DNA from: an uncultured Fibrobacterota bacterium
Lineage (GTDB): Bacteria > Fibrobacterota > Chitinivibrionia > Chitinivibrionales > FEN-1185
Assembly: GCA_963753345.1 (NCBI GenBank)
Contig: CAVWBU010000032.1
Span: 96,001 to 160,000, forward strand
Direction of reading: 5' to 3'
DNA: 64,000 bases
A program made the translations under genes and the position numbers. Positions 4,484 through 62,398 of this stretch are shown here, piece by piece (position 1 is the first letter of the stretch; every line of letters starts with the position of its first letter). Under the pieces are notes generated by a model that had not been told where the DNA came from, searched no databases, and worked only from the letters and a program-made list of their open reading frames with translations.

Positions 4484-4650
4484 GCCGCGCGTTAGGTGGA
4501 CCGAAGGGTGAGCAAGAGCGAATTGCCGGCCGACCCTCCCCGAAGGGGACTACGGGCGGTCCGGCAACGAGGCGGACGGCCGAGCCCGCAGGGAGACCGA
4601 CCCTTGGTTGGGGCGCCTGGTCCTGCGCTCCAACCAAGGGGAACGCCCAA
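4484..4650 (+). repeat. Structured intergenic repeat, module A copy 1
   Basis: GCCGCGCGTTAGG…GGGGAACGCCCAA; close homologue of 24208-24348. Confidence 0.9.
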
Positions 4651-4688
4651 TTCTTCCTGCTTTGTCAAAAGAACTCCTAGAGGTACTC

Positions 4689-5399
4689 ATGCCTTCCCCC
4701 ATCATTACAAGCATCCGTAAATCGCTCAGGCAAAGCAGCAGCGAAAAGACCAGAAGGACCGCGGAAACGTTCTTCAGGGAAAAGGCGAAATTTCACGGCG
4801 CGCCTTCCGCGGCATATCGGAAAATAGGACGCGAGCATTTCGCACAGGTGAAGAAGCTGGACAAGCGTGAGATCCTCTCCCTGTGCGAAGAGTTGTTGCA
4901 ATCCGGATATGTCGAAGAGGCGATCATCGCGTACGAATGGGCCGACCGGCTGCGCTCCTCGTTTACGGAATCGGATTTCACCGTGTTTGAACGGTGGCTC
5001 AGGAAGTACGTGAGCAACTGGGCCGAATGCGACACCCTGTGCAACCATGCGGTGGGATCGTTTGTGGAACAGTATCCTGCCTTTGTCAATCGCCTCAAGA
5101 TCTGGGCGAAATCGGGCAGCAGATGGTTCAGGCGCGCTGCGGCCGTGACGCTCGTTCTTCCCGCGCGCCGCGGGAAATTCCTTGCGGACGTTTTTGAGAT
5201 CGCCGGCATTCTCCTGGCCGACAGCGACGATCTCGTGCAAAAGGGGTACGGCTGGATGCTCAAAGAGGCAAGCAAGCTTCATCCGAAGGAAGTGTTCGAT
5301 TTCATCATGAAGCGCAGAACGGCGATTCCGCGGACCGCCTTGCGTTATGCAATTGAAAAGATGCCCCGTTCCATGAGGAAAAAGGCGATGGAGCGATGA
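4689..5399 (+). CDS. DNA alkylation repair protein (AlkD-like)
   Basis: NWAECD, W-RRAA, DDLVQKGYGWMLKE and RTALRYAIEK motifs. Confidence 0.9.
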   Translation: MPSPIITSIRKSLRQSSSEKTRRTAETFFREKAKFHGAPSAAYRKIGREHFAQVKKLDKREILSLCEELLQSGYVEEAIIAYEWADRLRSSFTESDFTVFERWLRKYVSNWAECDTLCNHAVGSFVEQYPAFVNRLKIWAKSGSRWFRRAAAVTLVLPARRGKFLADVFEIAGILLADSDDLVQKGYGWMLKEASKLHPKEVFDFIMKRRTAIPRTALRYAIEKMPRSMRKKAMER

Positions 5400-5528
5400 A
5401 GGGGAAGACCTAGGCGGCGGCGCCTTATCGGATTCTTCAGCCTGATTTTTTTTGAGCAAAAATCCCGTTTTTATTATATACTAACGGTATCAACATTTGC
5501 GTATCCACCTCAGGAAGGAGTCATTCGC

Positions 5529-6284
5529 ATGCCCATAGCATTTCTCCGCGCATCCGCCATTTTGGTTGTCCCGCTGTTGTTTTTTCTCATGGACGTCAAT
5601 TGCACCGTCACAAGCCAACCGACAACCCCGACGTCCCTTGCAACGCCGTCGTATCCGTACACCGCCGCGGCCGGCGAGTCCGACACCGTGTCGTGGGACC
5701 TGGTGCAGGGCGCAACCTCCTACACGCTGTACTATACAACCGACGAGAGTTTCCCAACCTTGTCGTCGCCTCGTATTTCGGTGGGGGCGGCGACGGTTTT
5801 CGTGCATAAAAGTCTTGACCCGACGTTGACGTACACCTATTGCGTTCAGGCGGCGGGCGGGGGCAGGGTAAGCGATCTTTCCGACGAAAGCTACGGGGTG
5901 CAGCCGCTGCCCATGATCCATGCCACCATTACCTTCGACAGCTACGCGGATGCGGATGTGGGTTTCATGTATTTCCTGATCGGGATTGACACCAACGGTA
6001 ACTACGTACCCACTGCCGGCACAAGACGGACCGTGGCCGGATTCACCGATGGCTACGGCAGCGCGACGTTCAACGTCACGGTCGATCACGACAATCTTTG
6101 GGGGTATTCGACATTCGAGGACTTGGACGGCAACGGGCTTCTGTCGACCGGCGACATGGTGTGGGGCAACGACACGAGCGCCGGCCATTATGGATATTTT
6201 TACTGGACGTCACAGTTCACATCGAGCAAAACCTTTTCCAAATCGTTTGACGAGGCGTTCGCCTCATTGCCGCATGTCTACTGA
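5529..6284 (+). CDS. Exported fibronectin type III domain protein
   Basis: Hydrophobic N-terminus; VSWDLVQGATSYTLYY…YTYCVQA FN3 pattern; AAGGAG RBS. Confidence 0.65.
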   Translation: MPIAFLRASAILVVPLLFFLMDVNCTVTSQPTTPTSLATPSYPYTAAAGESDTVSWDLVQGATSYTLYYTTDESFPTLSSPRISVGAATVFVHKSLDPTLTYTYCVQAAGGGRVSDLSDESYGVQPLPMIHATITFDSYADADVGFMYFLIGIDTNGNYVPTAGTRRTVAGFTDGYGSATFNVTVDHDNLWGYSTFEDLDGNGLLSTGDMVWGNDTSAGHYGYFYWTSQFTSSKTFSKSFDEAFASLPHVY

Positions 6285-6330
6285 ACCGTCCATATGGGTA
6301 TGTTGACAAATTAAGAAAACATCGAGACGT

Positions 6331-6495
6331 CTACGCCGTCAGCCTGAATGCGACATAAATGCCGAGCAGTGCCCCAACCATGCTGCCGATCAGCGTGCCT
6401 GCCGAAATCGCGCCGGCCCCGAACAGCGTCGGCGCGTAGCCGCCGATGAGCGAGCCCGCCACCATTCCGAACATTATCATTGTTTTTCGCGACAT
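6331..6495 (-). CDS. Small glycine-zipper membrane protein (54 aa)
   Basis: MSRKTMIMFGMVAGSLIGGY…GSMVGALLGIY; two hydrophobic segments. Confidence 0.7.
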   Translation of the reverse strand: MSRKTMIMFGMVAGSLIGGYAPTLFGAGAISAGTLIGSMVGALLGIYVAFRLTA

Positions 6496-6594
6496 GTTTC
6501 CTTGGCTCCGATCTCTGCCAATAATTAATAATAGTTCTGGTGGGGACACTAATGAGTAATCTTAAAAAAGAATAGGGCGTTCCCCGCAAGACAA

Positions 6595-6654
6595 AAGAAG
6601 AGTTGGGCGCCCCGCGGCTTCGCCGCAGCGAGGGGGATACTTCCCCCGCCAACA
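6595..6654 (-). repeat. Minimal composite repeat: B outer end fused directly to A outer end
   Basis: Reverse complement of 6622-6654 matches 23874-23906 at 32/33 nt, then continues GAAGCCGCGGGGCGCCCAACTCTTCTT like the end of module A. A second A-end copy lies at 6568-6587. Confidence 0.85.
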
Positions 6655-6662
6655 ACTTTTTG

Positions 6663-8108
6663 TTATTGATTATTATCTTTTGTCAATTCCTGGGCCGCAA
6701 ACCCTAATTTCAGCAGTGTGTCTTCCCGCCATTTCGGAGCCATAAACTGCACGCCCACGGGAATGCCGTTGCTTTTTCCGCACGGGACCGAGATCCCCGG
6801 TATGCCAGCAAGGTTTGCCGAAACGGTGTAGATGTCGGTGAGGTACATCTGGAGCGGGTCGTCGCACTTTTCGCCGATTTTGAACGCGGGCGTCGCGGCG
6901 ACAGGGGAGACGACGGCGTCGCATTTCGTAAACGCGGCGTCGAAGTCGCGGCCGATAAGGGTGCGCACCCGCGCGGCCTTGAGGTAGTAGGCGTCGTAGT
7001 AGCCCGAGGACAGCACGTAGGCGCCGAGCATGATGCGGCGCTTGACTTCCGCGCCGAACCCTTCGCGCCGCGTGGTCTGATACATGTCGACAAGGGATTT
7101 AGGGTCAGCCGAGCGGTACCCGTACTTGACGCCGTCGTACCGTGCGAGGTTGCTCGAGGCTTCCGCGGTGCAAATAATATAGTAGGTGGCGATACCGTAC
7201 CCGAGATTGGGCAGTGAGACATGGGCCGTTTTACAGCCCGAGGCCTTGAGCTTGTCAAGAAGCGACTCTATGGGGCCGCGTACCTCGGCCGACAGGCCTT
7301 CGCCGAAGTATTCTTTGGGAACGCCCACCGTGATGCTGCTCGCGCCGCCTGTGTAAAGGTCATTGGTGTTTGCAAATTGATTGCCCGCGCAGGTGGAGTC
7401 GCGTTTGTCGGGCACCGAGAGCACCTCAAGAAGAAGGCCGATGTCCCGCACGTCCGCGGCAATGGGCCCTATCTGATCGAGCGACGACGCGAACGCCACA
7501 AGGCCGTACCGCGACACGCGTCCGTAGGTCGGCTTGAGTCCGACGCTGCCGCAATGGCAGCACGGCTGGCGAATGGAACCGCCCGTGTCGGACCCGAGCG
7601 CCAGCGGCACAAGGCCGGCCGCAACCGCGGCGGCGCTGCCGCCGCTCGAGCCGCCCGGGATGCGGCCGGGGTCGTTGGGGTTTTTTGTGGGGCCGAAATA
7701 GGAGTTCTCGGTGCTCGAGCCCATGGCGAATTCGTCAAGGTTCGTTTTTCCCACAATAACGGCGCCCGCGGCCAGGAGCGCCTCCGCGACGGTCGCGTTG
7801 TAGGGCGGAACAAAATTTTCAAGGATTTTTGACGCGCACGTTGTGGTGACGCCCTCGGTGCATATATTGTCCTTGACGGCGACCGGAATGCCGCACAGCG
7901 GCATCGTCTTCTTGACGTCTGCGGAAAGGGTGTCTATGAAATCGGCGCGCAAAAGCGCTGCTTCGGGCTGCACCGAGATGAACGAATGGAGATCCTTATC
8001 GCGGCCGGCGATGCGGCCGAGGGCGGTCGAGACGAGTTCGCGGCTGGATACCTTGCCGTGTGCGCATTTCGCAACAACGCCCGACACGGGCTCGTCGAAG
8101 AAGTTCAT
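6663..8108 (-). CDS. gatA: Asp-tRNA(Asn)/Glu-tRNA(Gln) amidotransferase subunit A
   Basis: GKTNLDEFAMGSS, GGSSGGSA, GSDTGGSIRQP, EASSNLARYDG and EVKRRIMLG motifs. Alternative start at 8138. Confidence 0.97.
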   Translation of the reverse strand: MNFFDEPVSGVVAKCAHGKVSSRELVSTALGRIAGRDKDLHSFISVQPEAALLRADFIDTLSADVKKTMPLCGIPVAVKDNICTEGVTTTCASKILENFVPPYNATVAEALLAAGAVIVGKTNLDEFAMGSSTENSYFGPTKNPNDPGRIPGGSSGGSAAAVAAGLVPLALGSDTGGSIRQPCCHCGSVGLKPTYGRVSRYGLVAFASSLDQIGPIAADVRDIGLLLEVLSVPDKRDSTCAGNQFANTNDLYTGGASSITVGVPKEYFGEGLSAEVRGPIESLLDKLKASGCKTAHVSLPNLGYGIATYYIICTAEASSNLARYDGVKYGYRSADPKSLVDMYQTTRREGFGAEVKRRIMLGAYVLSSGYYDAYYLKAARVRTLIGRDFDAAFTKCDAVVSPVAATPAFKIGEKCDDPLQMYLTDIYTVSANLAGIPGISVPCGKSNGIPVGVQFMAPKWREDTLLKLGFAAQELTKDNNQ

Positions 8109-8125
8109 GGGGCGGTTCCCGGGGT

Positions 8126-8425
8126 TTACTTGTACCACCTGAACAGGTAGAGGCTCACGAAAACGCCGATGATCGAAAGCAGGTTGAATTTCATCTGGAA
8201 ACCGAGCTGGAACTTGATTGCCGCAATATCGATGAGCAGCGGCTTGTTGTTCACGAAATCACCGAATCCGAAGGAGATGAAATTATAGGTGAAGAACGTC
8301 TTGACCACGTTGTTGCCGCCCGGAATAAGGGCGAAGAGCGTGCCGAGATACGCGCCGATGAGAATGCCCACAATAACGAGGAGCACCAGCGTCCATATGT
8401 TTCTGTCCTTGAGGCCGATGGCCAT
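8126..8425 (-). CDS. DUF4321-like membrane protein
   Basis: 99 aa with two hydrophobic ends; IDIAAIKFQLGFQMKFNLLSIIG pattern. Confidence 0.75.
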   Translation of the reverse strand: MAIGLKDRNIWTLVLLVIVGILIGAYLGTLFALIPGGNNVVKTFFTYNFISFGFGDFVNNKPLLIDIAAIKFQLGFQMKFNLLSIIGVFVSLYLFRWYK

Positions 8426-8652
8426 GGCGTATTCCTTTTTTTATGTTGATAAAAGGATGATGCGCACGAATCCAGGCGCGGACGGTTCGGTGGTTTTGGG
8501 ACCGATATAGAATATAATTCTTCTGCCGTTGATCCACCCGGCCTTGGAAAGCCGGATCATGAAAAAGAACTTCACCACAGAGGCACGGAGAACACGGAGA
8601 AAGAAGATCAAGTCAAGGACAAGTACGAGATCGTTGATGCATTTGTCTTGCT

Positions 8653-8673
8653 GTCAACCGTCAACTGTCAACC
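8653..8673. repeat. Heptamer tandem repeat (GTCAACY x3)
   Basis: gtcaacc gtcaact gtcaacc, just past the protease stop codon. Confidence 0.7.
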
Positions 8674-8685
8674 ATTGGCTTTGTT

Positions 8686-9927
8686 TTATTGCTTTTCCTT
8701 GTATTCCCCGAGTACGATGGTGCTCTGCATCGGCTTGCCCTTGCGCACATAACTTATCACCACCGAATCGCCCACGAAATAGTCGAGGAAGAAACCGCCG
8801 ATGTCCGCCGAACTGCGGATGGGCCTGCTGCCCATCTGCACGACGATGTCCCCGCGGAGCAGCTTTGCCGTCTCGCCGGGACTGTGCTTTGCTATTTCCG
8901 ACACCACGACCCCGGTCGTTTTGTCGTAGCCGAGCGCCTGCGCAAGGGGCTTGGTGAGGTCCTGCACCGAAATGCCGGTGTAGATGAGCCGGCGCTTGCC
9001 ATAGGTGATGAGCTCCTTTGCCACGCGCTTGGCGCGGTCTATGGGAATGGCGAATCCGATGCCGATTGACCCGCGGTAGCTGTCGCTTCCCGTAAAGATG
9101 AACGTGTTGATGCCCACCACCTCGCCGAGCGCGTCCACGAGCGGCCCGCCGGAGTTGCCCTGGTTGATCGCCGCGTCGGTCTGGATCATACCCTGGTAGT
9201 ACACGCCCTCGCTCGGCGCGAAGTTGCGGTCCACGGCCGAAATCACGCCCAGGGTCACCGTGGGCCGCGCATCGTTGATAAAAAACCCGAACGGGTTGCC
9301 GATGGCAATGGCCCATTCGCCTATCATGAGCTTGTCGGATTCGCCGAGCTTTGCAGAAGGGAAAGCTGCGCCTTTCACCGAGACAATTGCGAGGTCGGTC
9401 TGCGGGTCAACCCCCACGATTTTTGCCTCAATCTGGCTGCCGTCGGACAGCGTGACGAACAATTTCTGTGCCTGTTCCACCACGTGGTAGTTGGTAAGGA
9501 TGTATCCATCCTTGCTGAAGAGGAACCCCGATCCCATGCGCTCCACCTCGCGCACGCGGGGCACCACCTCGGGGCTGAAGAAGAAATCGAAGAACTCGTC
9601 CGACGAATAGGCGCGCCGCACCACCTGCAGCTGCGTCACCACGATGCCCACCACGCTCGGCGAGACCATTTTTGTGGCGCGGACGATTGCGTTTGAGCGC
9701 GACCCCGTGATGTTGTCGCTGGGGGGCGGCGCGCCGCGCTCCTCCTGGGCTGCGGAAGATGACCCGGCGTCCGCGTTCACGGCCTTTTGCGCCTGCGTGT
9801 CGCGGGACTGGTAAAGCCTCCGAAACACCTCAGCTCCTGCGATACCACCCGCGATCAGGCCGATGACAAGGAGGAGGATGTAAAGCCCGGTATTGCCGGT
9901 TTGTGATTTAATGAAATTATTTCTCAT
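8686..9927 (-). CDS. HtrA/Deg-family trypsin-like serine protease with one PDZ domain
   Basis: GSGF, LTNYHVV, DLAIV and QTDAAINQGNSGGPL motifs; N-terminal TM helix. Start at 9927 or 9933. Confidence 0.93.
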   Translation of the reverse strand: MRNNFIKSQTGNTGLYILLLVIGLIAGGIAGAEVFRRLYQSRDTQAQKAVNADAGSSSAAQEERGAPPPSDNITGSRSNAIVRATKMVSPSVVGIVVTQLQVVRRAYSSDEFFDFFFSPEVVPRVREVERMGSGFLFSKDGYILTNYHVVEQAQKLFVTLSDGSQIEAKIVGVDPQTDLAIVSVKGAAFPSAKLGESDKLMIGEWAIAIGNPFGFFINDARPTVTLGVISAVDRNFAPSEGVYYQGMIQTDAAINQGNSGGPLVDALGEVVGINTFIFTGSDSYRGSIGIGFAIPIDRAKRVAKELITYGKRRLIYTGISVQDLTKPLAQALGYDKTTGVVVSEIAKHSPGETAKLLRGDIVVQMGSRPIRSSADIGGFFLDYFVGDSVVISYVRKGKPMQSTIVLGEYKEKQ

Positions 9928-9997
9928 GATCATTCTTTCCAGATGTTGATTGATTTTCAAATGTAAGTGATCTGCTTCTGCTTTTGCAATCTGCAAT

Positions 9998-10735
9998 CTA
10001 CATTTCAATCCCCTTGTATTCCACATAATCAAGCACCAGTCCGCAGGCCGGCGCGGTTTCGCCGACGGCTTTTCGGTTTTTGTTTTCGATAATCTCTGCC
10101 ATGGTCGAGGCCAGCCTTCCCCTGCCGATGTCCACGAGTGTGCCCACGATGGACCTGACCATTTTGTAAATGAAGCGGTCGGCGGTTATCGTAAACACAC
10201 GGAGGTCGTCCCGGTCGTCAAGCGACGCCCCGCTCACCGTGCACACCATGTTTTCGGTGGACGTGCCCGTGGCGCAGAAAGCGGAAAAGTCGTGCGTGCC
10301 CGCAAGCGCCGGGATGTTGTCGCGCACCTTTGCCCAGTCCACGTCGTGGAAGACCATCCAGACCCTTTTGTAAAGCAGTGGCCGTTTCCGCCGCGCCATA
10401 AAGTACTTGTACCGCCGCGCCACGGCCGAATACCGGGCGTGAAAGTCCGGCGCCGCCGGCCGCAGGCCGTACACGCAGATGTCGTCGTCGAGCACGGCGT
10501 TCACCGACCGCTCGCACCGCCCCGCGTCCAGTGCTCCGTCGATGTCCACGTGCGCGCCCTGGCCCGCCGCATGCACGCCCGCATCGGTGCGGCCGGCGCC
10601 CGTCACCCTGCATTCGCTGCGCACCACGGTGGTGAAGGCGGCGTTGAGCGCGTCCTGGACGCTCGGCGCGTTTTCCTGCGACTGCCAGCCGCCGTAACGC
10701 GTGCCGTCGTATTCGACGCGGAAGAAATAGCGCAT
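9998..10735 (-). CDS. truA: tRNA pseudouridine(38-40) synthase
   Basis: YDGTRYGGWQ, GAGRTDAGVHA, FHARYSA and MVRSIVG motifs. Confidence 0.97.
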   Translation of the reverse strand: MRYFFRVEYDGTRYGGWQSQENAPSVQDALNAAFTTVVRSECRVTGAGRTDAGVHAAGQGAHVDIDGALDAGRCERSVNAVLDDDICVYGLRPAAPDFHARYSAVARRYKYFMARRKRPLLYKRVWMVFHDVDWAKVRDNIPALAGTHDFSAFCATGTSTENMVCTVSGASLDDRDDLRVFTITADRFIYKMVRSIVGTLVDIGRGRLASTMAEIIENKNRKAVGETAPACGLVLDYVEYKGIEM

Positions 10736-11019
10736 GTGATCCTTTTTGGAATACTACGCTTTGAGGGACGACAGCCTTGATTCTTATTCTGGACGCAAGA
10801 GCCGATATCAGTCGTGACTTTTCCTTGCATGCAGATCCTGAGAAATTTGACCCTATAAAATAGTATTGGCTCTGGGGGTATCCAAAGAAGCTTGGCTTAG
10901 GCTGGGTTCGGTGACAGTCTGGGTCTTTGACCGGCATCAGATTACAGAGGTAGTAACAAACAGGTTTTCAATACCGGCCACAATGTTGATAATTGTAGCT
11001 ACAAATACTATTTTGACTC

Positions 11020-11271
11020 ATGCCGAAATGGAACGAGTTCGTCCCTGAAGAAATCGAATACGATTTTGAAAATGAGGAACTGCATGAACATTATATCACC
11101 ATTGATGAGGCTGCAGAATGTTTTCACAACCGGTATTCGGTCCAAAGGAACAAGAAGTTTAAGGACCGGTACAAGCTTCATGGAATAACCGACAGCGGCA
11201 GAAAGCTTACGGTAATCTTTCAGTTGAAAAGGCTTGGTGTCGTGAGAATTATCACCGGATGGGAGACGTGA
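11020..11271 (+). CDS. BrnT-like type II toxin
   Basis: 83 aa; H-ITIDEAAECF…RYKLHGITDSGRKLTVIF…VRIITG pattern. Confidence 0.75.
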   Translation: MPKWNEFVPEEIEYDFENEELHEHYITIDEAAECFHNRYSVQRNKKFKDRYKLHGITDSGRKLTVIFQLKRLGVVRIITGWET

Positions 11272-11275
11272 AACC

Positions 11276-11560
11276 ATGCGTATGATTCGAAACAAAAAAA
11301 CCTCGAAGAAAGAAAAAACAATTGACAATGCCGTCATGGAAGCCGCATATGACCATGACCAGTGGGAAAAAGAATTACCCGTCACCCCGAAAACGGTTCC
11401 CACCTCGATCCGACTGAGTCCGCGCACGATCCGCCGGGCGAAATTGTTCGCGCGCGTCCATTGTCAGCGCGGATATCAGAGCTGGCTGAAGAAGATCATC
11501 GAGGATCGCATCGATACGGAGTATGAGATTTACAAGGGAATACGCGGGACCGGAGCGTAA
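11276..11560 (+). CDS. Cognate BrnA/CopG-like antitoxin
   Basis: TSIRLSP…GYQSWLKKII ribbon-helix-helix pattern; directly downstream of the toxin. Confidence 0.72.
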   Translation: MRMIRNKKTSKKEKTIDNAVMEAAYDHDQWEKELPVTPKTVPTSIRLSPRTIRRAKLFARVHCQRGYQSWLKKIIEDRIDTEYEIYKGIRGTGA

Positions 11561-11635
11561 CAAGGGGATGGGTGCGCCTGAAATAATGGAGCCGGCGGCC
11601 GTACTAATCAACCAACAATATATTCTCGACTGGTC

Positions 11636-16136: not shown

Positions 16137-16145
16137 CGTGATGCA

Positions 16146-17381: not shown

Positions 17382-17407
17382 CGCACCCCTTCGCAAGCGA
17401 GGTGATT

Positions 17408-23873: not shown

Positions 23874-24037
23874 TGTTGGTGGGGGAAGTATCCCCCTCGC
23901 TGCGGCCCGGCGCTACCTAACAACTCAACTCTCGTCAATCGCGCCGGTCCTTCGCTACCCCCTCCTGGGTGGCCGCCTTGACAAAGCGGTAGCAAAACCA
24001 TGTATTGCTGTGGCGGCACCCACGGAGAATAGTTGAA
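23874..24037 (-). repeat. Structured intergenic repeat, module B copy 2
   Basis: Reverse complement aligns end to end with 21232-21362, with a longer internal hairpin. Confidence 0.85.
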
Positions 24038-24090
24038 ACGTTGAATAGTTGAAAAGCCAATACCAGAAAACTGGACAAAGAAAAACAAGT

Positions 24091-24118
24091 GTCATTGCGA
24101 GCGCAGCGAAGCAATCTC
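24091..24118. repeat. REP-like short palindrome GTCATTGCGAGCGCAGCGAAGCAATCTC
   Basis: ATTGC…GCAAT stem; partial second copy GTCATTGCGAG near 36097. Confidence 0.6.
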
Positions 24119-24207
24119 CCAATGATTTTTACCTAAAAGAACCTTGTCTGATTTGCTGCGAATGCCGATTGGCGTGAGAATGTAACTTGACGGAATAGAG
24201 TTCTTCT

Positions 24208-24348
24208 GCCGCGCGTTAGGTGGACCGGAGGGTGAGCTAGAGCGAATTGCCGGCCGACCCCGGCCGAAGGCCATCGGGGCGGTCCGGCAACGAGGCGAAC
24301 AGCCGAGCCCGCAGGGAGACCGACCCCGCGAAGCGGGGGAACGCCCAA
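24208..24348 (+). repeat. Structured intergenic repeat, module A copy 2
   Basis: GCCGCGCGTTAGGTGGACC…GGGGGAACGCCCAA. Confidence 0.9.
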
Positions 24349-24372
24349 ATCTTCTTAAGAAATTAATTTGAA

Positions 24373-36022: not shown

Positions 36023-36160
36023 AAAACCAAAACAACAACTGGAAGCTGGGTTTTTTTTATTGCCGCGCGCAGTATACCAATGAAGTTGCAGAAAGCGTCA
36101 TTGCGAGTGCTTGGAATTCCAGGTGGCGCAAAGATGTAATTGACTTAACGGATTTCTTCT

Positions 36161-41894: not shown

Positions 41895-42021
41895 ATTTTT
41901 CTCACACGGCCTCCGGTTGAGGATCTCAATGAGGGCAAAGTCTATCTTTTGACTTGCGTGCTTCGTTGGTGAGAATTCCGGTTGGCGCGAAAAAAAGTAA
42001 TTGACTGAATAGAATTCTGCT

Positions 42022-42196: not shown

Positions 42197-42322
42197 TTTT
42201 TTTTGGTATTTGCTCAAACCTCCCTTTCCCTTGAAATCCCCCCCGGTAGCATATATTTTTGATGTTCTTTTTTGACATCACCATCTCCTTTCCATATTAA
42301 TACACACCTTTTGGAGGCTCCT

Positions 42323-51768: not shown

Positions 51769-51775
51769 CCGTTTC

Positions 51776-52717: not shown

Positions 52718-52731
52718 CGGCGCGGGAACCT

Positions 52732-53097: not shown

Positions 53098-53178
53098 ATT
53101 GATGATTGTGAATTGAAAAACAGCTTAACCGTTTTCTTAGGTTTTTAAATCTACAATCTAAATTCTACATTCTACAAT
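53092..53178. repeat. Inverted pair of AT-rich heptamer arrays between convergent genes
   Basis: ttgtaga ttgatga ttgtgaa ttgaaaa … aatctac aatctaa attctac attctac. Confidence 0.6.
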
Positions 53179-54727: not shown

Positions 54728-55545
54728 CGTTCGTCACCGTCCCTGCTGCTGGTTTCCCAGCATGTTCCTTTGTCAAGCTCCTCAAGCTGCTCCGACATCA
54801 GATCGCGCACCCGCCGCGCAAAGTCGGGCGCCGTCTCGGCCGCCTTGCTGCGGCAGGCTTCAAGAAGACGGATCACGTACCTGAATCGATACGGGGGGAA
54901 AATACTCCCTTTGCGGCGCGCCATGAGCGGAAGATCGGAATGGATGACCGCCGGCACAACGGGTGCGCCGGAATCCACGGCTATTTTGAACGGGAAGGTC
55001 CCGAACGGAAGGAGTTTTCCGGTCTTTGCGCGCGTGCCCTCGGGGAACACAAGGAGGTTCTTGCCCGAAGCAAGTATCGCCCTGCATTTTTCCATGGCCG
55101 CGGCAAGCGACGAAAGCGAATCCGGGTCGATGCTCACAAAGTCGAGGTGCTTTACAAATGTTGAAAACAGCGGGACCCCGGCGTAGTTCGACTTGATGAC
55201 CACGCCGCTTTGCGGGAGCATGGAGAGCATGATGAGCGCATCAAGCCTGCTCCGGTGGTTTGCCACCACCACCGACCCGCGCACCGCGCGTGCGCGTCCG
55301 CCCGGCTGTTCCGTAAACGAATACACGCCCAGGCCGGGCAGCCAGATTCTCACGAGAACAAACGCATACGCCTTGAGTACCGAATACATGATCCGCTGCA
55401 TGAGGCGGGGCCAGGGCGCAAGGATCATGAGAAAAGGAATGCCGACAAGGAAAAACATCACCGCGGACAGGAAATACCCGAGATAGCCGATGATGCCGAG
55501 AAAGATTTTGAGAGGGTACCAGGGGGTGATGGGAATATCCTGCAT
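54724..55545 (-). CDS. Lysophospholipid acyltransferase (PlsC family)
   Basis: ANHRSRLD, VFPEGTR and PVVP motifs. Confidence 0.9.
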   Translation of the reverse strand: MQDIPITPWYPLKIFLGIIGYLGYFLSAVMFFLVGIPFLMILAPWPRLMQRIMYSVLKAYAFVLVRIWLPGLGVYSFTEQPGGRARAVRGSVVVANHRSRLDALIMLSMLPQSGVVIKSNYAGVPLFSTFVKHLDFVSIDPDSLSSLAAAMEKCRAILASGKNLLVFPEGTRAKTGKLLPFGTFPFKIAVDSGAPVVPAVIHSDLPLMARRKGSIFPPYRFRYVIRLLEACRSKAAETAPDFARRVRDLMSEQLEELDKGTCWETSSRDGDER

Positions 55546-55571
55546 AATTACGTCGGGTCTGCAAGCAGCGG

Positions 55572-56117
55572 CTAAAACGGCGTCTTGATCTCACTCAGAA
55601 ACGGAAGTTTCGTGTCCTTGTCCGAAACAACGGGATGTTCCACCGGCCAAGCGACGCCGATGGCGGGATCGTTCCACCTGATGCCCGCGTCGTGGGCCGG
55701 TGAGTAGTATGCGTCAACTTTGTACAGAAACTCCGTGTCCGCCGACAGGGTGCAGTATCCGTGCGCGAATCCCCGGGGGATATAGAGCATCCGTTTATCC
55801 TTCTCGCCCAGCGTGAACCCCAGCCACCTGCCGAAGGTTTTCGATTTTTTCCGCAGGTCCACCACCGCGTCGAAGACTTCGCCGCGCACCACGCGGACGA
55901 GCTTGCTCTGATCAAACGGCGGTCTCTGGAAATGCAGGCCGCGCACCACGCCGGCCGCGAAGGACCGCGCGTGATTGTCCTGAACGAAATTCGAGGCGAG
56001 ACCGTGCGCGTCCAGTTCCCGCGCCGCGAACGATTCCAGAAAGAAGCCGCGGCTGTCCTCGTGGACGATAGGTTCGATGAGCCACACGCCCGGCAGTCCT
56101 GTTTCGGTGAATTTCAT
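55572..56117 (-). CDS. rmlC: dTDP-4-dehydrorhamnose 3,5-epimerase
   Basis: DSRGFF, VQDN, RGLHFQ, GFAHG and WNDP motifs. Confidence 0.96.
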   Translation of the reverse strand: MKFTETGLPGVWLIEPIVHEDSRGFFLESFAARELDAHGLASNFVQDNHARSFAAGVVRGLHFQRPPFDQSKLVRVVRGEVFDAVVDLRKKSKTFGRWLGFTLGEKDKRMLYIPRGFAHGYCTLSADTEFLYKVDAYYSPAHDAGIRWNDPAIGVAWPVEHPVVSDKDTKLPFLSEIKTPF

Positions 56118-56989
56118 CAGCGTTTTCCCGATGCGAGCTGCAGAAGGTAGTCGCCATAGCTGTTCTTCTTCATGGGCTCCGCGAGGCGCGAAAGCTGCTC
56201 CGCGGTGATGTACCCGAGATGGAACGCTATTTCCTCCGGGCACGAGACCTTAAGCCCCTGGCGCGACTGTATGGTCTCAACGAACACCGAGGCCTGCAGC
56301 ATTGACTCGTGGGTGCCGGTGTCGAGCCATGCAACGCCCCTGCCGAGGAGCACCACGTCGAGCTTCCCCTCCTGTAAATAGGTCATATTGAGGTCGGTTA
56401 TTTCGAGTTCGCCGCGCGCAGACGGTGCAAGCCGCGACGCGCGCCGGGCGACCTGGCTGTCGTAAAAGTAAAGTCCGGTCACGGCATACGGAGACACGGG
56501 CCGTTTCGGCTTCTCCACCAGGCCGACGGGTTTTCCTTCGGCGTCAAGCTCGACGACGCCGTACCGTTCCGGGTCGGTCACCCAGTACCCGAAAATGGTC
56601 GCCCTGCCCCTGTCGACCGCGGCTTTGGCAAGCGTGCCCACAAGGCCGTGTCCCCAGAAGATGTTGTCGCCGAGGATGAGCGCCACCGAGTCGCTGCCGA
56701 TAAAATCCTTTCCGATGATGAACGCCTGCGCGATTCCCTCTGGTTTGGGCTGTACCGCATACGAAAGGTTGATGCCCCACTGGCCGCCGTCGCCGAGCAG
56801 GCGCCTGAACGCATCGATGTCCTGCGGCGTACTTATGACGAGGATGTCGCGTATGCCCGCGAGCATGAGAATGGAAAGCGGGTAATACACCATGGGCTTG
56901 TCGTAGATCGGCATGAGCTGCTTGCACACCGCGAGCGTCACGGGATACAGGCGCGTGCCCGAGCCGCCGGCGAGGATGATGCCTTTCAT
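56117..56989 (-). CDS. rmlA: Glucose-1-phosphate thymidylyltransferase
   Basis: [29 protein letters not shown] and WLDTGT motifs. Confidence 0.97.
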
Positions 56990-57108
56990 GGCGTCCTTCT
57001 TGTTGCTGGGTTGTTCCTCTGCGAAAATCGAGAGGTGAACGATTTCAGAAAATACAATCTGTCACCCGCTGAATGAAGTTCAAAAGGTCGGCGGGCTGGG
57101 AATGGAAA

Positions 57109-57135
57109 GGGCCGGAACAATGGTTGTTCCGGCCC
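57109..57135 (-). terminator. Hairpin downstream of the OMP gene
   Basis: Perfect 12-bp stem GGGCCGGAACAA-tgg-TTGTTCCGGCCC; weak T tract. Confidence 0.6.
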
Positions 57136-57164
57136 CGAGATGCTGTGCGATGCGGACTCTGAGC

Positions 57165-57878
57165 TTAGAAGTAGAACGCCAGGGTGAGAGCGCCGACCGC
57201 TGTGATACCGAAAGTCGTAGTTGCGCCGCCCTTGACTGTGGGGCTGCCGGGTGCGGTGGATTTCTGGTCGTAGGGGGCAGTCACCGAATACCCGAGCCGG
57301 TATTCCGCGCTCAGGCTCAATTCCTTGATAATAAAGAATTCGATGCCGCCGAGCGCGGCGATGTTAAAGTTAAAGCCGCCTACATAGGCTGTGCCGTTAA
57401 TTGTTTGCGGGGCATTTGTTACCGTGTACTGAGGGGTTCCGGTGGGTTCAGCATCTTTTTCCGAAGTCGCCGTTGACACAAACCCCAATGCGCCGCCCAC
57501 GTAAGGGCTCACTCGAGTCTTGAGCAAATGATACTCCGCCCCAACGTTGAGGCCGACACTCCAGGCGTTCATATCGCCGGCTGTCCCGCCGCCGGCAGGA
57601 GCCGGGGTTCCCTGATCGGCAAGTCCGAACAGCAGACTTCCGCGAAGGGCCAAAGGATCCAATATGTAGTACTTGAATCCCGCTCCACCGTTATAAGCAG
57701 TGGCCCCCAGTAGCGACAGTCCGCTGAAAGTAAAGAGCGCTGCCTTCGAGCCCGACTGCACGCACTGGCCCATGTCGTCTGCCGATACAAGAGATGCAGG
57801 AGCAACCAGCGCCAGCACCACCGCACCGCATAGCGCGGTTTTTCGGAATCCACTCAAAACAAGTGAAGAAGACTTCAT
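57165..57878 (-). CDS. Outer-membrane beta-barrel protein
   Basis: Signal peptide; SPYVGG; C-terminal LTLAFYF barrel signal. Confidence 0.85.
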   Translation of the reverse strand: MKSSSLVLSGFRKTALCGAVVLALVAPASLVSADDMGQCVQSGSKAALFTFSGLSLLGATAYNGGAGFKYYILDPLALRGSLLFGLADQGTPAPAGGGTAGDMNAWSVGLNVGAEYHLLKTRVSPYVGGALGFVSTATSEKDAEPTGTPQYTVTNAPQTINGTAYVGGFNFNIAALGGIEFFIIKELSLSAEYRLGYSVTAPYDQKSTAPGSPTVKGGATTTFGITAVGALTLAFYF

Positions 57879-57985
57879 ACAACACCCCTTTCTTTAATGT
57901 GGAAACCTTTCAACGTCTCTTACGCTGCCAAATCTAAAATATTAAAAGGGAAAGTGATGTCCAACAAAATATCAAAGATTTTCCA

Positions 57986-58402
57986 TCACTCGCCGATTAC
58001 CTGAACAAAAATCTTCCTTCCCCGCGGCCGGTTATCGTGGTCGATGACCACGATCTGCTGCCAGGTTCCGAGAATGAGTTTCCCTTCCGTAAACGGTACG
58101 GAGATTCCCGGGCCCATGAGCGTGGCGCGGAGGTGCGAGAAACCGTTGTCGTCGCCCCAGGTCTCCGAATGGCGGGTCTTAAGACTGCTCGGCACGAGCT
58201 TGTCGAGCCGGTCTTTCATGTCCTGCGCAAGCGCCGGCTCGAATTCAATGGTAGATATGGACGCGGTCGAGCCCACCACAAAGACCGTGGCAATGCCGCT
58301 TTCGATTTCCGATCTTGCAATGATTGACTGGACCTCCGGGGTGATGTTCACGACGTCGGAGAATCCCCGCGTCTGGACGGTAAAACTGTTTCCGAAAACC
58401 AT
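57986..58402 (-). CDS. YjbQ/UPF0047 family protein
   Basis: DNGFSHL, LGTWQQI and DNRPR motifs. Confidence 0.92.
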   Translation of the reverse strand: MVFGNSFTVQTRGFSDVVNITPEVQSIIARSEIESGIATVFVVGSTASISTIEFEPALAQDMKDRLDKLVPSSLKTRHSETWGDDNGFSHLRATLMGPGISVPFTEGKLILGTWQQIVVIDHDNRPRGRKIFVQVIGE

Positions 58403-58522
58403 GAGGCGGCCTTTCTGTTTGTGAAACCAAAATACATTCGGGACTCGCGACTGCGGATTCGCGCTTCGCGGTCGCATGCATGCGGCAGCCGGACATATTT
58501 TCTGTGTGAGGAGAAACTGCGA

Positions 58523-59455
58523 ATGGCCGGTCTTGACGAACACATAGCTCTGTTCCTTGACTACCTGCTCAAGGAAAAAGGCTTCTCGCCGCTCACGGTC
58601 GGGGCGTATGGCGGCGACCTTGCGCAGTTCCGGACCTTTACAGAGCAGACCTGCACCGGCGCGGGGTTCGAAGACGTCATGAAAAAGGCCGTGATGCGCG
58701 ACTTTATTTACGCACAAGGCGAACAGGGCCTTACGCCGCGCTCGATCGCGCGGAAGGTGGCGGCGCTCAAGTCGTTTTCGAAGTTCTGCGTGAGGCGGCA
58801 TATCCTGTCTGTCAACCCTGCAAAGCTCCTGGCAAGCCCCAAGCTCGACAAGCCGCTTCCTGCCTTTCTCACCGAAAGGCAGGCGCGGGAACTGACGGTC
58901 GCCGGCGCTCCCGGCGGGAAACAGCGCGCTGCAACGGATGTGCTCAGGAGCCGGGCCATCGTCGAGCTTTTATACGGCACCGGGCTTCGCCTTGCAGAAC
59001 TGCACGGCCTCAACGCGGACACCATCGATTACAAGCGCGCCACGGTCCGCGTGCTTGGCAAGGGGAGAAAAGAGCGGGTGGTGCCGGTCACCGATTCGGC
59101 CGTGAATGCAATACGGGAATACTTGAAGACCCGGCCGGGCCTTCCCGGGAACGCGCCGCTTTTCGCAGGCCGCAGGGGAGGCCGCCTTTCCCGCAGGCAG
59201 ATAGAACGCATCGTTGCGCAGGAACTTTCCGCGGTCACCAGTCAGAGGAAACGCAGCCCGCACGTGCTCAGGCATTCGTTCGCCACGCACCTGCTCGACC
59301 GCGGGGCCGACATCCGCGCGGTCAAGGAGCTGCTCGGCCACTCGTCGCTGGCAACCACGCAGATCTACACCCACATGTCAAAGGAACACCTGCTCAAGGT
59401 GTACCGCAGGGCGCACCCGCGCGCCGAGGTTGCGCGTCCTGCCGGGCAAAGCTGA
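58523..59455 (+). CDS. xerC: Tyrosine recombinase XerC/XerD family
   Basis: LYGTGLR, GKGRKER, HVLRHSFATHLL and LLGHSSLATTQIY motifs. Confidence 0.9.
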   Translation: MAGLDEHIALFLDYLLKEKGFSPLTVGAYGGDLAQFRTFTEQTCTGAGFEDVMKKAVMRDFIYAQGEQGLTPRSIARKVAALKSFSKFCVRRHILSVNPAKLLASPKLDKPLPAFLTERQARELTVAGAPGGKQRAATDVLRSRAIVELLYGTGLRLAELHGLNADTIDYKRATVRVLGKGRKERVVPVTDSAVNAIREYLKTRPGLPGNAPLFAGRRGGRLSRRQIERIVAQELSAVTSQRKRSPHVLRHSFATHLLDRGADIRAVKELLGHSSLATTQIYTHMSKEHLLKVYRRAHPRAEVARPAGQS

Positions 59456-59470
59456 CAATTCCTCAACGGA

Positions 59471-59497
59471 AAAAGCCGGAACACTGCTCCGGCTTTT
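59471..59497. terminator. Bidirectional terminator
   Basis: AAAAGCCGGA-acactgc-TCCGGCTTTT between convergent genes. Confidence 0.75.
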
Positions 59498-59516
59498 GTC
59501 AATCTGTTTGCGGTAA

Positions 59517-60017
59517 CTACTCGTCGGAGCCGGGTGGCCCGCCATGCCCGCCGGGAGGACCATGATGCGGCCCGTCTCCATGGTGGTCGCCCTGCATGGG
59601 CGGACGAAGCTCGTTGCTCAGCAGCTTTTCAAACTGTTCCTTGGTGAGAACGGACTTGAGCGCGATCATGTGGTCGGCCATCTGTTCCGCCATCGCCCTG
59701 TGGAGCTCGCCCATTTCCTTTGCATAGCCGTGCAGAACGGTCTTGGAAGGAGAGGGTTTGAGCAGCTCATCCTTGCTTTTGTCAAGGAGCACCTTCATTT
59801 TTTCGAAGTTCTGCTTGCGAAACTCCATCGACTGCTTCCTCATGTCCTTGAGCCTGGCCTTCTGATTTTCGGAAAGGCCGAGCTGCGCCCAGATCCTGTG
59901 GCGTGTCGAATCCCTTGAAAATGAGGCGGAATCCTGCGCGCCTTGCGCGCCCTGCGCGTGCGGCGCGGCGACCATCAGACAGAGAGTCAGTCCACTCAAG
60001 GTCATTGCGAAACGCAT
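59517..60017 (-). CDS. Periplasmic Spy/CpxP/ZraP-like protein
   Basis: Signal peptide; LGLSENQK and VLTKEQ LTxxQ-like motifs; His/Gly/Pro-rich tail. Confidence 0.85.
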   Translation of the reverse strand: MRFAMTLSGLTLCLMVAAPHAQGAQGAQDSASFSRDSTRHRIWAQLGLSENQKARLKDMRKQSMEFRKQNFEKMKVLLDKSKDELLKPSPSKTVLHGYAKEMGELHRAMAEQMADHMIALKSVLTKEQFEKLLSNELRPPMQGDHHGDGPHHGPPGGHGGPPGSDE

Positions 60018-60033
60018 ACTGCCCTCCACGGTT

Positions 60034-60360
60034 CTATTCCTGATACAAAACCTCTTCGTAATAGCCGTACGAATTCGAGTTTTCGCGGTACACGTCGCTG
60101 TTGATATAGGTGTTGACGCCGTTCAGGTCTTCGGCGATTTCGGCCGAATACGACGCGCGCGACGGCGACAGACGCAGTGCGGTGAACACCGACACCGCGA
60201 TAAGCAGCGACGCCGCCAGACCGAAAACGGTACGTTCCACGGCCCTTCTCCTGTTGATGCGCCGGATAACGGCGCCGTACAGGTTCTCCGGCAGCGGCGG
60301 AATGCTTGCGAGCTGGGCGAGCGCGGCCCGCGGCATCTGGTTCTCAAAATTCTGTTCCAT
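60034..60360 (-). CDS. Putative membrane anti-sigma factor
   Basis: Single TM helix (AASLLIAV); immediately downstream of the ECF sigma gene. Confidence 0.65.
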   Translation of the reverse strand: MEQNFENQMPRAALAQLASIPPLPENLYGAVIRRINRRRAVERTVFGLAASLLIAVSVFTALRLSPSRASYSAEIAEDLNGVNTYINSDVYRENSNSYGYYEEVLYQE

Positions 60361-60369
60361 AAAAACCCC

Positions 60370-60897
60370 CTAATTTTCCCCGAACTTCTTCCGTATTTCC
60401 TCCTTGAGCCGAAAGAGCTGCGTACGGAGGCTTCCCGCGCTCTTGCCCGTGATATCGGCCAGTTCTTCAAACGAGAACCCGAGCATTTCGCGGCCGGTGA
60501 GAAGGAAGCGCTCTTCGGCCGTGATGCTCTTGAGTATTTTCTGCATGTCCTCTTTCACGTCTATGCCTTCCGCCGATGATACCGTTGGTCCAGTGTCTTC
60601 GTCAAGTTCCTGCATTTCGTTTACGCGGCTCTGTTTTGAGAGCAGCGTCATGCATGCGTTGAATGTTATCCTGTAAATCCATGTCGATAACGCAGAACCT
60701 CCGCCGAACTTGCGAAGAGAGTTATAGACCCTTATGAACGTCTCCTGAACCGCCTCCTGCGCCGCCCCGGAATCGCCGTGAAGCGTCCGGTAAGCTATTT
60801 TCCATGAAAACGGCGCGTAATAGTCGTACAGCGCCCTAAATGATGCCCGATCTCCTTTTCTCGCGCGCTGTACCGTGAGATCGTCCAGTTCATTCAT
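60370..60897 (-). CDS. ECF RNA polymerase sigma factor
   Basis: VQETFIR, STWIYRITFN and FSFEELA motifs. Confidence 0.92.
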   Translation of the reverse strand: MNELDDLTVQRARKGDRASFRALYDYYAPFSWKIAYRTLHGDSGAAQEAVQETFIRVYNSLRKFGGGSALSTWIYRITFNACMTLLSKQSRVNEMQELDEDTGPTVSSAEGIDVKEDMQKILKSITAEERFLLTGREMLGFSFEELADITGKSAGSLRTQLFRLKEEIRKKFGEN

Positions 60898-61029
60898 TCT
60901 TTCAACCTATTTGACATCAAAAAATGATTCAATGTTACAGAGGGGTAAACTTATTTTACCCCGTACATAAGGATGCTAAAACATACGTTGTGCAGCGGCC
61001 GCATTCAAAGAATTTGAAAGGGGCATACG

Positions 61030-61488
61030 GTGCAAAATCAAGGCAATGCGATCATCGTGGCCTCGGACCACGCAGGGTTCAAGCTCAAGGAGTTTGTCAA
61101 GCGTGAACTGGGGAACCGGTCGATTCCGGTCGAAGACGTCGGGGTGTTCAGCGAGGAGCGGAGCGATTACCCGATATTCATTGCTAGGGCGGCCTCAAAA
61201 GTATCCAGCGGCGCTTTCCGCCGGGGCATCGTCCTGTGCGGGTCGGGGATCGGCGCGTCCATTGTGGCCAACCGGTTCAAGAACGTGCGCGCCGCGCTGT
61301 GCGTGACTCCGGAAATGGCGGAAATGTCCCGCCGGCATAATGACAGCAATGTTCTCGCAATGGGCGAGAGAATCACCCCGCCCGAAACCGCCGCGAAGAT
61401 ACTTTCCGTGTGGCTCGACACGCCGTTTGACGGCGGCCGCCACGAGACACGGGTGCGTCAGATCGACACGGTTGTCGGAACGCAATAA
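61030..61488 (+). CDS. rpiB: Ribose-5-phosphate isomerase B
   Basis: SDHAG, CGSGIG, HNDSN and FDGGRH motifs. Confidence 0.96.
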   Translation: MQNQGNAIIVASDHAGFKLKEFVKRELGNRSIPVEDVGVFSEERSDYPIFIARAASKVSSGAFRRGIVLCGSGIGASIVANRFKNVRAALCVTPEMAEMSRRHNDSNVLAMGERITPPETAAKILSVWLDTPFDGGRHETRVRQIDTVVGTQ

Positions 61489-61496
61489 CGCAGGAG

Positions 61497-61961
61497 ATGC
61501 CGATGACGGCCAGGAAAACGCGCGCCCGCAGGCGCACGCGCGCCCCGTGGGACGAGTACTTCATGAAGATCGCGCAGCAGGTGGCCACGCGCTCGACCTG
61601 CGACCGCAAGAACGTGGGCGCGGTGATCGTGCGCGACAAGACCATCCTTTCGACCGGGTACAACGGCAGCGTGCGCGGTATGCCGCACTGCGACGACGTG
61701 GGCCACACCATGGAAAACGGCCACTGCATCGCCACGGTGCACGCCGAAGCCAATGCGATCATCCAGGCCGCCAAGAACGGCGTGGCGCTTGACGGAGCGG
61801 ACATCTACATAACGGCGTCGCCGTGCTGGCACTGCTTCAAGCTCATCGCCAACAGCGGGATAAAGAGGATTTTCTACCTCGAATTCTACCGCGACAATCA
61901 CGTCATTGAAGTAGCGGGACAGGCGGGAATAGAGTTAAGGCAAGTAGTAATTAATTCTTGA
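61497..61961 (+). CDS. dCMP deaminase (ComEB family)
   Basis: WDEYFM, TGYNG, HAEANA and PCWHC motifs. Confidence 0.93.
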   Translation: MPMTARKTRARRRTRAPWDEYFMKIAQQVATRSTCDRKNVGAVIVRDKTILSTGYNGSVRGMPHCDDVGHTMENGHCIATVHAEANAIIQAAKNGVALDGADIYITASPCWHCFKLIANSGIKRIFYLEFYRDNHVIEVAGQAGIELRQVVINS

Positions 61962-61971
61962 ACCAATAATC

Positions 61972-62172
61972 TTGCTGGGGGCACCGCTTCGCGTTTCCCC
62001 CTCGCTTCGGCCTCCTCGGCCTTCGGCCTGCGGTGTCCTGCGCTACCCCCTCCAGCAAAGGGGCGCGCGAGGTCGCTCGCTTGACGCTCGCGAAGCGTCG
62101 CCCCTTCGCAACGCAACCGTTGCGGAACAACCCCCTCCGCCTTCGGCACCTCCCCCTTAACAAGGGGGAGGA
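61972..62172 (-). repeat. Structured intergenic repeat, module C copy 2 (contains the B core)
   Basis: Homologous to 40904-41127; the reverse complement includes GGAGGGGGTAGCGCAGGAC…GAAGCGAGGGGGAAAC as in module B. Confidence 0.88.
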
Positions 62173-62230
62173 CATTCAATACTGCAGTTATTGATGGTTG
62201 GTGGTTTAAGAAATGGCGACGACCCTGACT

Positions 62231-62398
62231 GCCGCGCGTTAGGGGCGACTGGAGGCCGCGCTGGAGCGCGGTGCCGCCTGACCACGGCCCGCAGGGCCAT
62301 TGTGGCAGGCGGCCCGAGGCCGAAGGCCGAGACCGGAAGGAGAACCGACCCCCAGTACAGTGGTGCATCCTGCACTACCGTACTGGGGAAACGCCCAA
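62231..62398 (+). repeat. Structured intergenic repeat, module A copy 6
   Basis: GCCGCGCGTTAGGGGCGACTGGAGG…GGGGAAACGCCCAA. Confidence 0.9.

Follow-up and report, generated by a model that had tools for sequence, protein, structure and literature searches.

Module A, a structured intergenic repeat family with an old and selected fold: possibly a mosaic exchanged between sites by recombination

The window analysed here is a stretch of 64,000 nucleotides (nt) from the genome that we call G000 (G000:C32:96001-160000; assembly GCA_963753345.1, contig CAVWBU010000032.1), and the element in question is Module A, a GC-rich unit of 140-175 nt that lies six times within it. The assembly comprises 4.52 Mb in 55 contigs, with 55.9% G+C and 94% completeness; the six copies have a G+C content of 66-79%, against 56% for the genome. 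From these six and 40 more copies of G000 (46 in all), and using a hand-drawn structure, we built a covariance model of 163 positions and 38 pairs, termed R1. Run over the whole window on both strands at E<=0.001, R1 returned exactly six matches of 105-143 bits, and a search with nhmmer found the identical six copies and no others:

4483..4652, plus strand: copy 1 body, ACGAGG subfamily with a long last hairpin; R1 137.3 bits, model positions 1-163
24207..24350, plus strand: copy 2 body, ACGAGG subfamily, the shortest form; R1 137.3 bits
35864..36027, minus strand: copy 3 body, CCGAGG subfamily, leaderless, back to back with copy 4; R1 118 bits
36160..36310, plus strand: copy 4 body, with a variant closing helix (GCGCT.. 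/ ..GGCGCCC); R1 118.8 bits
42021..42198, plus strand: copy 5 body, CCGAGG subfamily, followed by a run of eight T; R1 105.3 bits
62230..62400, plus strand: copy 6 body, CCGAGG subfamily, leaderless; R1 143.2 bits

An earlier note on this DNA had placed six copies of a structured non-coding family at these positions, which the sequence itself, R1 and nhmmer all bear out. The end motifs and the four last stems that it quoted read as it claimed, and its division into two subfamilies (copies 1, 2 and 4 versus copies 3, 5 and 6) is real: of the 233 distinct full copies in the genome, 220 could be parsed, with ACGAGG in 129 and CCGAGG in 91. Six is the correct number for the window; as a count for the genome it is a large underestimate, with about 400 loci in G000.

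Module A closes with a helix, P1, in which GCGUU pairs with AACGC and a 5' GCGCC is matched by a 3' GGCGC. A second helix, P1b (AGGN with NCC), surrounds four hairpins, P2 to P5, of which P2 has a four-base loop, P3 is long and carries a 3-nt bulge on its 3' side, and P4 and P5 are short. The last hairpin, P6, sits between the 3' strands of P1b and P1 and is hypervariable, with at least 103 distinct sequences among the 145 parsed. Two further structural ideas were tried and rejected. An outer helix between the TTGGCGC heptamer of the upstream leader and the 3' end of the unit failed because the heptamer covaries neither with the P1 type nor with the last bases (70 flanks, compared by eye), and a tRNA-like reading, in which an acceptor-like P1 is followed by CCA, failed because the CCA is lost in distant copies.

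The fold is carried by covariation. In A1, a MAFFT alignment of the 46 copies to which no structure had been fitted, 88.2% of the cells pair, compared to 78.9 +/- 0.5% after shuffling (none of 500 shuffles reached the observed value) and 35-50% when the partners are slid against each other; changes on both sides of a pair occupy 164 cells, versus 62 in the shuffles. A second set of 23 distant copies, drawn from other families of the order, pairs in 89.5% of cells versus 64.8% when shuffled (0/500) and shows both-side changes in 33 of the 38 pairs (0/500), in an alignment that was made by the model and is therefore biased towards its structure. In these distant copies the two variable pairs of P1 take the forms UA/CG/GC and UA/CG/AU/GC, and those of P1b the forms GC/CG and CG/UA/GC/UG. 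Within the helices, G-U is commoner than A-C both in 55 copies (86 vs 41) and in the 23 distant ones (31 vs 7), which favours the strand as given. Part of the covariation within the genome is due to whole hairpin modules that have been swapped between copies, not to independent compensatory mutations. The covariation on the unfitted and the distant alignments, together with the hypervariable P6, supports the proposal of the earlier note that the family is non-coding and that structure rather than sequence is kept.

Module A is highly abundant in G000. The nhmmer search counted 407 loci (316 full length, 76 with only the 5' part, 13 with only the 3' part and 2 internal), of which 91 are thus truncated and in decay; together they span 60,409 bases, or 1.34% of the genome. 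Other searches gave similar numbers: blastn with the six copies yielded 427 merged loci, and the 5' motif (one mismatch allowed) combined with a short filter yielded 385-393 sites. R1 matched each of the 150 G000 candidates that were scored, at 93-143 bits. Given match E values from 1e-24 to 1e-33 and pairing far above the shuffled and slid controls, the family is not a product of chance. Neighbouring copies have a median spacing of 5.8 kb, and 233 of 239 full copies are distinct in sequence. The P2 and P3 types are common to both subfamilies, and module types are partly shuffled between them. Near-duplicate gene sets, with three copies each, occur on short contigs of G000 (C44/C45/C46, C10/C39/C43 and C4/C5/C16); they look like strain heterogeneity or collapsed repeats of a metagenome-assembled genome (MAG), so that the copy counts may be slightly inflated. 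We also observed a GC-rich mini-insert of 27 nt that is nested at no fewer than three different positions inside bodies (loci L002, L013, L022, L030 and L039). It has 72 matches in G000, and a body starts at most 350 nt upstream in 40 of them, so that about half lie within or beside bodies and the others elsewhere; it resembles a very small insertion element.

The aspartyl-tRNA synthetase encoded in the window has its best matches, at 62-67% identity, in MAGs that are mostly labelled Victivallaceae, Lentisphaeria, Kiritimatiellales or Verrucomicrobia, and on these matches we read the host as a member of the Planctomycetes-Verrucomicrobia-Chlamydiae (PVC) group, and not of the Bacteroidota. The order of the window comprises 81 genomes in 33 genera, and its class contains the same 81. 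At E<=1e-4, R1 matches 17 of these genomes, from 11 genera. High copy numbers are confined to the genus of the window, where all 36-48 candidates scored per genome match in G001, G002, G004 and G005; no R1 match was obtained in G003, a 99% complete genome of this genus, nor in the two other genera of the family. In the rest of the order, a matching genome holds 1-19 weaker matches (35-64 bits). Outside the order, 3 of the 79 genomes in a phylum sample of 150 carry one copy each, at 38-44 bits. Across this range the stems of the distant copies have diverged, but architecture and unpaired junction sequences are retained, which marks the fold as old and selected. We conclude that the fold is real, old and under selection.

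The conserved pattern also recurs in public metagenomes, in at least 120 contig stretches that are pattern matches only, and a blastn search against phages and plasmids gave no match. The sole pattern match in IMG/VR was rejected as chance, as it lies in coding DNA and has no model match. Next to one distant copy (L148:2-1450, in G045) we noted an open reading frame (ORF) with FG-GAP repeats and a Tc-toxin mid/N-terminal Pfam domain.

The repeated DNA is larger than the body. It begins at about -300 and does not continue beyond the 3' end of the body, and within it we distinguish a leader directly upstream of the body and a partner module, U', further upstream. In the window they are represented as follows:

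4444..4482, plus strand: atypical leader of copy 1, with TTGGCGC present and TTGAC absent
24145..24206, plus strand: AT-rich leader of copy 2 (TTGGCGT .. TTGAC .. TAGAGT)
36105..36159, plus strand: leader of copy 4, motifs and spacing as in the consensus
41960..42020, plus strand: leader of copy 5, motifs and spacing as in the consensus
23877..24056, minus strand: partner module U' on the 5' side of copy 2, an opposite-strand fold that ends in a hairpin and A/U runs

The conserved leader is AT-rich, about 60-75 nt long, and consists of TTGGCGC, then TTGAC, then a TAGATT-like motif, as seen in both anchored and MAFFT profiles. An exact TTGAC stands about 15-60 nt before the body in 218 of 390 cases. 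Leader cores occur within 40 nt upstream of a body 179 times, and 163 of these lie at exactly 9 nt; the remaining matches to the core are mostly chance occurrences in coding DNA. The leader is conserved in G000, G001 and G002. At the opposite end, most copies carry a T-rich and G-poor tail of about 10 nt, which starts 3 nt past the closing helix. Over +2 to +11 the frequency of T is 55-79% (47% at +9) and that of G 2-11%, and the distant copies are T-rich here as well. The corresponding tail of copy 1, which is T/C-rich, occupies 4651-4664.

U' precedes 126 of 387 bodies, that is, about a third. Three U' motifs occur 124-192 times each in G000; for each motif, a body follows within 350 nt in 83-108 occurrences and precedes in only 4-7. 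RNAalifold assigns U' an energy of -27.3 on the minus strand versus -12.3 on the plus strand, with 240 G-U and 9 A-C among the minus-strand pairs. The usual layout therefore has U' pointing leftward, an AT-rich centre with 8-nt repeats of the GTTGAA type, and Module A pointing rightward; copies 3 and 4 represent the A/A version of this layout. Three to four tandem 8-nt units of this type lie at 24030-24056, and also upstream of G002 L154 and G004 L045 and L155, in each case between U' and the leader. Kept across species of the genus, these units could be protein-binding sites or promoter parts. A small palindromic module, GTCATTGCGAG .. CGAAGCAATC, is likewise found between U' and the leader, at 24091-24118 and 36097-36109, and its exact 11-mer occurs 29 times in the genome. 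Before copy 6, a GC-rich variant of the upstream module occupies 61975-62180 and contains several hairpins of the ccccctt..aaggggg type; a block very like it stands in place of copy 3 at the orthologous site in G001.

With respect to genes, the copies show no uniform arrangement. When the orientations of the upstream and downstream genes relative to the copy were classed against ORFs of at least 150 aa (n=228), same/same was found 69 times, same/opposite 68 times, opposite/same 53 times and opposite/opposite 38 times. The distance from the 3' end of a copy to the stop of a convergent gene has a median of 27-31 nt, and that to the start of a co-oriented gene is about 100-150 nt; for the gene on the upstream side, the median distance is about 300-370 nt. 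There is no common downstream gene, the ten genes at ten loci being unrelated (LpxK, URO-D-like, acyltransferase, ThiI-like, LolA, KdpD and others). Copy orientation agrees weakly with the local GC skew (202/340), and its agreement with the local gene strand (182/340) is not significant. A crudely called ORF shares more than 60 nt with 113 of 239 full copies.

Comparisons of orthologous sites between species of the genus reveal considerable turnover. At the site of copy 2, the copy in G002 has diverged (80 bits), lacks a leader and points the same way, and the copy in G004 is inverted. The site of copy 5 precedes the gene for pyruvate phosphate dikinase; there the copy of G004 is full and differs in its P3, P4 and P6 modules, and those of G002 and G005 carry internal deletions, accompanied in G005 by an extra inverted copy. 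The site of copies 3 and 4 coincides with a synteny break in G002, G004 and G005. In G001, where the flanks of this site are 80-94% identical, a U-type module takes the place of copy 3 and the leader; copy 4 differs from its G000 counterpart in P1, P1b (with both strands concordant), P2 and P6, and its centre is nearly identical. Between these two genomes, the length of the U-tail changes along with the cassette. At a second locus compared between them, U', leader and A in G000 correspond to an inverted A, leader and A in G001. Between copy 5 and the start of the dikinase gene, the interval 42205-42275 has been conserved in four species (orthologous sites L167, L168 and L169) and contains a promoter-like pair, TTGAAA .. 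TATATT, suggesting that ordinary sigma-70-type promoters may exist in the genus and that copy 5 lies just upstream of one. In G003, two convergent genes end 3 nt apart at G003:C57:12900-13700 (L138), whereas repeats fill a spacer of about 500 nt at this place in G000; we rejected this locus as a clean empty site, since the upstream gene there is a different one.

Our favoured reading, to which we give roughly even credence, takes Module A as the body of a structured mosaic repeat of intergenic regions, probably transcribed and exchanged between sites by recombination, and not as a set of six small RNA (sRNA) genes. The loci behave like a birth-and-death population whose members are overwritten by recombination, and in the genus of the window the family is expanded to hundreds of copies, has gained the AT-rich leader and often stands back to back with U'. 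Transcription would proceed on the given strand, either from the AT-rich centre or by read-through, and the closed fold together with the U-tail may provide a protected, terminator-like 3' end. Copies would spread and overwrite one another by recombination or gene conversion, with the conserved junctions serving as putative crossover points, and recombination at these junctions would explain why the hairpins look 'exchangeable', as the earlier note had put it. If a copy must still fold to be a good donor or to be retained, the fold would persist even as single loci decay. Candidate uses for the host are termination or insulation at gene ends and the stabilisation of RNA; equally, the units may merely be tolerated.

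Several observations weigh against this reading. The alignments made with the covariance model are biased towards its structure, and the folding energy of single sequences is no better than that of shuffles (z -1.23; reverse strand -0.30); being null on both strands, it was set aside as evidence, leaving the fold to rest on covariation. The 3-nt gap between P1 and the U-tail is atypical of an intrinsic terminator, in which the U run starts 0-2 nt behind a GC-rich stem, and scans of copies 2-4 with consensus sequences revealed no sigma-70 promoter and no canonical hairpin-plus-T terminator. As almost all copies are unique, there has been no recent burst. No Y1 transposase (PF01797), RVT_1 or TnpB (PF07282) was found in G000, and no protein family exceeds three copies in this genome, with the caveat that insertion sequences often remain unassembled in MAGs; the mechanism of spreading is thus deduced from comparisons of few loci only. 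Neither terminal inverted repeats nor target duplications were seen in the flanks of 70 copies or at the orthologous junctions; the only inverted similarity is one of 7-8 nt between the TTGGCGC of the leader and the 3' GCGCCCAA, which does not covary with the P1 type. Finally, the phylum-wide conservation of the junctions would also fit a functional RNA with a protein or ligand partner.

We put forward a bolder interpretation as a tentative possibility: Module A and U' may form a new kind of transposase-free replicator based on an RNA fold. Failing that, Module A may be a functional RNA of a new and abundant class that has its own protein or ligand partner. In the first case, a terminator-capped cassette of structured RNA would copy itself into other intergenic sites and overwrite them, through an RNA or single-strand intermediate or with the help of a putative host protein that reads the conserved junction. 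The fold itself would then be the heritable unit, conserved across the phylum.

It is also conceivable, if unlikely on balance, that the copies constitute a family of true sRNA genes, trans-acting or protein-binding, that has multiplied in the genus; some bacteria carry many paralogous sRNAs. On this account the promoter would lie in the AT-rich leader or centre, the U-tail would act as terminator, and the purine-rich GGA/GGAG junctions and loops would provide the working surface. Much of what has been described above agrees with it: the junctions are conserved across the phylum and the stems covary, G-U prevails over A-C on the given strand, the U-rich tail belongs to the unit, the leader is kept in three species, sites are occupied across species, and the divergent arrangement of U', centre and A resembles two transcription units. 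However, about 400 copies, 91 of them truncated, and deleted orthologues are unlike purifying selection on each gene. Moreover, the family is missing from the 99%-complete G003 of the same genus and from 64 of the 81 genomes of the order, and at copies 2-4 there is neither a recognisable promoter nor a recognisable terminator.

We consider it quite improbable that Module A is the folded single-stranded DNA end of a non-autonomous transposon, such as a miniature of the REP/REPIN-RAYT or IS200/IS605 type, moved by a nuclease that recognises hairpins in single-stranded DNA. The REP and BIME elements of enterobacteria and pseudomonads, which are associated with RAYT, occur in hundreds of extragenic copies, mostly at the 3' ends of genes, with either orientation represented. 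They form mosaics with other modules, fold when single-stranded, are long-lived and differ from one close relative to the next. Module A resembles these REP/REPIN elements in its hundreds of extragenic copies, in the mosaic that it forms with upstream modules and nested inserts, and in the inverted pairs formed by copies 3 and 4 and seen again in G001. Its sporadic occurrence in relatives, the presence of both orientations, the position at gene ends and the synteny breaks at copies would all suit such an element, as would a hairpin about 11-12 nt from the right end and unequal left and right ends that lack inverted repeats or target duplication, a feature of that class. Y1 transposase genes (PF01797 matches) are indeed present in G002, G004 and G005. 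Yet none of Y1, TnpB and reverse transcriptase (RVT_1) was found in G003, just as in G000, and in the sister genomes no copy lies within 1.5 kb of a Y1 or reverse transcriptase gene. The end hairpin, which the enzyme would need for recognition, is the most variable part of the unit, and no known end of a REP or IS200 element approaches the complexity of the six-helix junction: a REP unit is a single imperfect palindrome of 20-40 nt, whereas Module A is a 140-175 nt junction of six helices with conserved unpaired sequences and a fold shared across the phylum, and no RAYT/Y1 gene was found in G000. Rfam models of IS200/IS605-type RNAs have no match in the window, and tolerance of G-T pairs alone cannot distinguish DNA from RNA.

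Other repeat families of bacteria provide parallels to the mosaic repeat that we favour. The BOX elements of pneumococci and the RIME-type elements of rhizobia combine conserved ends with a middle part whose modules vary or can be exchanged, number 100 copies or more, lie beside genes, have stable predicted RNA folds and have no recognisable transposase. Module A shares with them the conserved ends, the variable modules, a copy number of at least 100, a predicted RNA fold, a position beside genes and the lack of a recognisable transposase. In contrast to BOX and RIME, its variability resides in a hairpin inside a conserved multi-helix fold and not in the number of tandem boxes, it has low-copy distant relatives in other families and classes, and about a third of its copies are paired with an oppositely oriented module. 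Miniature inverted-repeat elements of the Correia and ERIC types have terminal inverted repeats, target duplications and one long hairpin, none of which we find in Module A, although the length of 100-200 nt, the high copy number, the intergenic position and the possible effects on transcripts are common to both.

A cis-regulatory leader or riboswitch acting on the downstream gene is brought to mind by copy 1, which lies 39 nt before a start codon, and we regard this explanation as highly improbable. A multi-helix junction with conserved unpaired nucleotides would be in keeping with it, and in single-copy genomes the gene that follows usually shares the strand of the copy; there is also a sub-threshold match to a variant c-di-GMP-II aptamer (26 bits, gathering score 40; E 0.49), no better than chance in a search of 30.8 kb. 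The downstream genes are unrelated, though, and a convergent gene faces 106 of 228 copies, as it does 8 of the 19 copies in distant genomes that have a called downstream gene.

Module A matches no catalogued RNA family. At gathering score, Rfam 15 has no match anywhere in the window, and thus no family of it matches the copies; permissive scans of copies 3 and 4, of 20 loci and of the U' region gave chance-level matches only (STnc480, c-di-GMP-II-GAG and STnc150). The earlier note had suggested a resemblance of the ends to Flavo-1, which was not supported: the Flavo-1 model (gathering score 42 bits) has no match at E<=10 over copies 3 and 4 and none at E<=1 over the 20 loci, and its zero matches in the whole genome carry little weight alone, given that control genomes likewise have none. 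Flavo-1 (RF01705) is hosted by Bacteroidetes (PMC2864571, Table 1) and is, similar to Module A, an orphan structured RNA candidate without known function and not cis-regulatory. It differs from Module A in the length of its model (76 positions vs about 163) and in its host phylum, and no covariance-model match connects the two.

Acido-Lenti-1 (RF01687) is listed from Acidobacteria and Lentisphaerae in the same table (PMC2864571) and is summarised as abundant and of unknown function in a recent preprint (bioRxiv 10.64898/2026.10.21.760802). It is comparable to Module A as an abundant orphan motif of a related lineage, and it is present in G000. However, its model has 46 positions (37 bits), its sequence and fold are different, and it matches no Module A copy. 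The sole match found in G000 (G000:C48:15683-15727, L171; 41.9 bits), with 150 of 853 candidates scored, is a separate module of 45 nt in a repeat-rich spacer, 136 nt away from a Module A body. That Module A belongs to Flavo-1 or to some other catalogued family, Acido-Lenti-1 for instance, or represents a long variant of one, is scarcely credible: it is favoured only by the similarity of ends suggested in the earlier note and by the report of Acido-Lenti-1 from Lentisphaerae in PMC2864571, and is opposed by the missing Rfam matches on the copies, by the weak test of the genome with Flavo-1 and by the separate location of the only Acido-Lenti-1 match. Within the one literature library searched, neither the end motifs nor work on repeats and structured RNAs of Verrucomicrobia, Lentisphaerae and Kiritimatiellae led to a description of the family.

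If our reading is correct, 1.3% of this genome consists of one uncatalogued RNA-like fold, and more when the leader and U' are included. It would also mean that this fold is conserved throughout a phylum in divergent sequence while it turns over between sister species without a recognisable mobility enzyme. Two questions become testable in this way: whether structured extragenic repeats stay folded through selection acting on the host or through selection that treats the repeats as replicators, and how such repeats move without a transposase. On the practical side, the units coincide with breaks in synteny and with the ends of contigs in MAGs of the lineage and inflate spurious ORF calls, and a covariance model would allow annotators to mask them.

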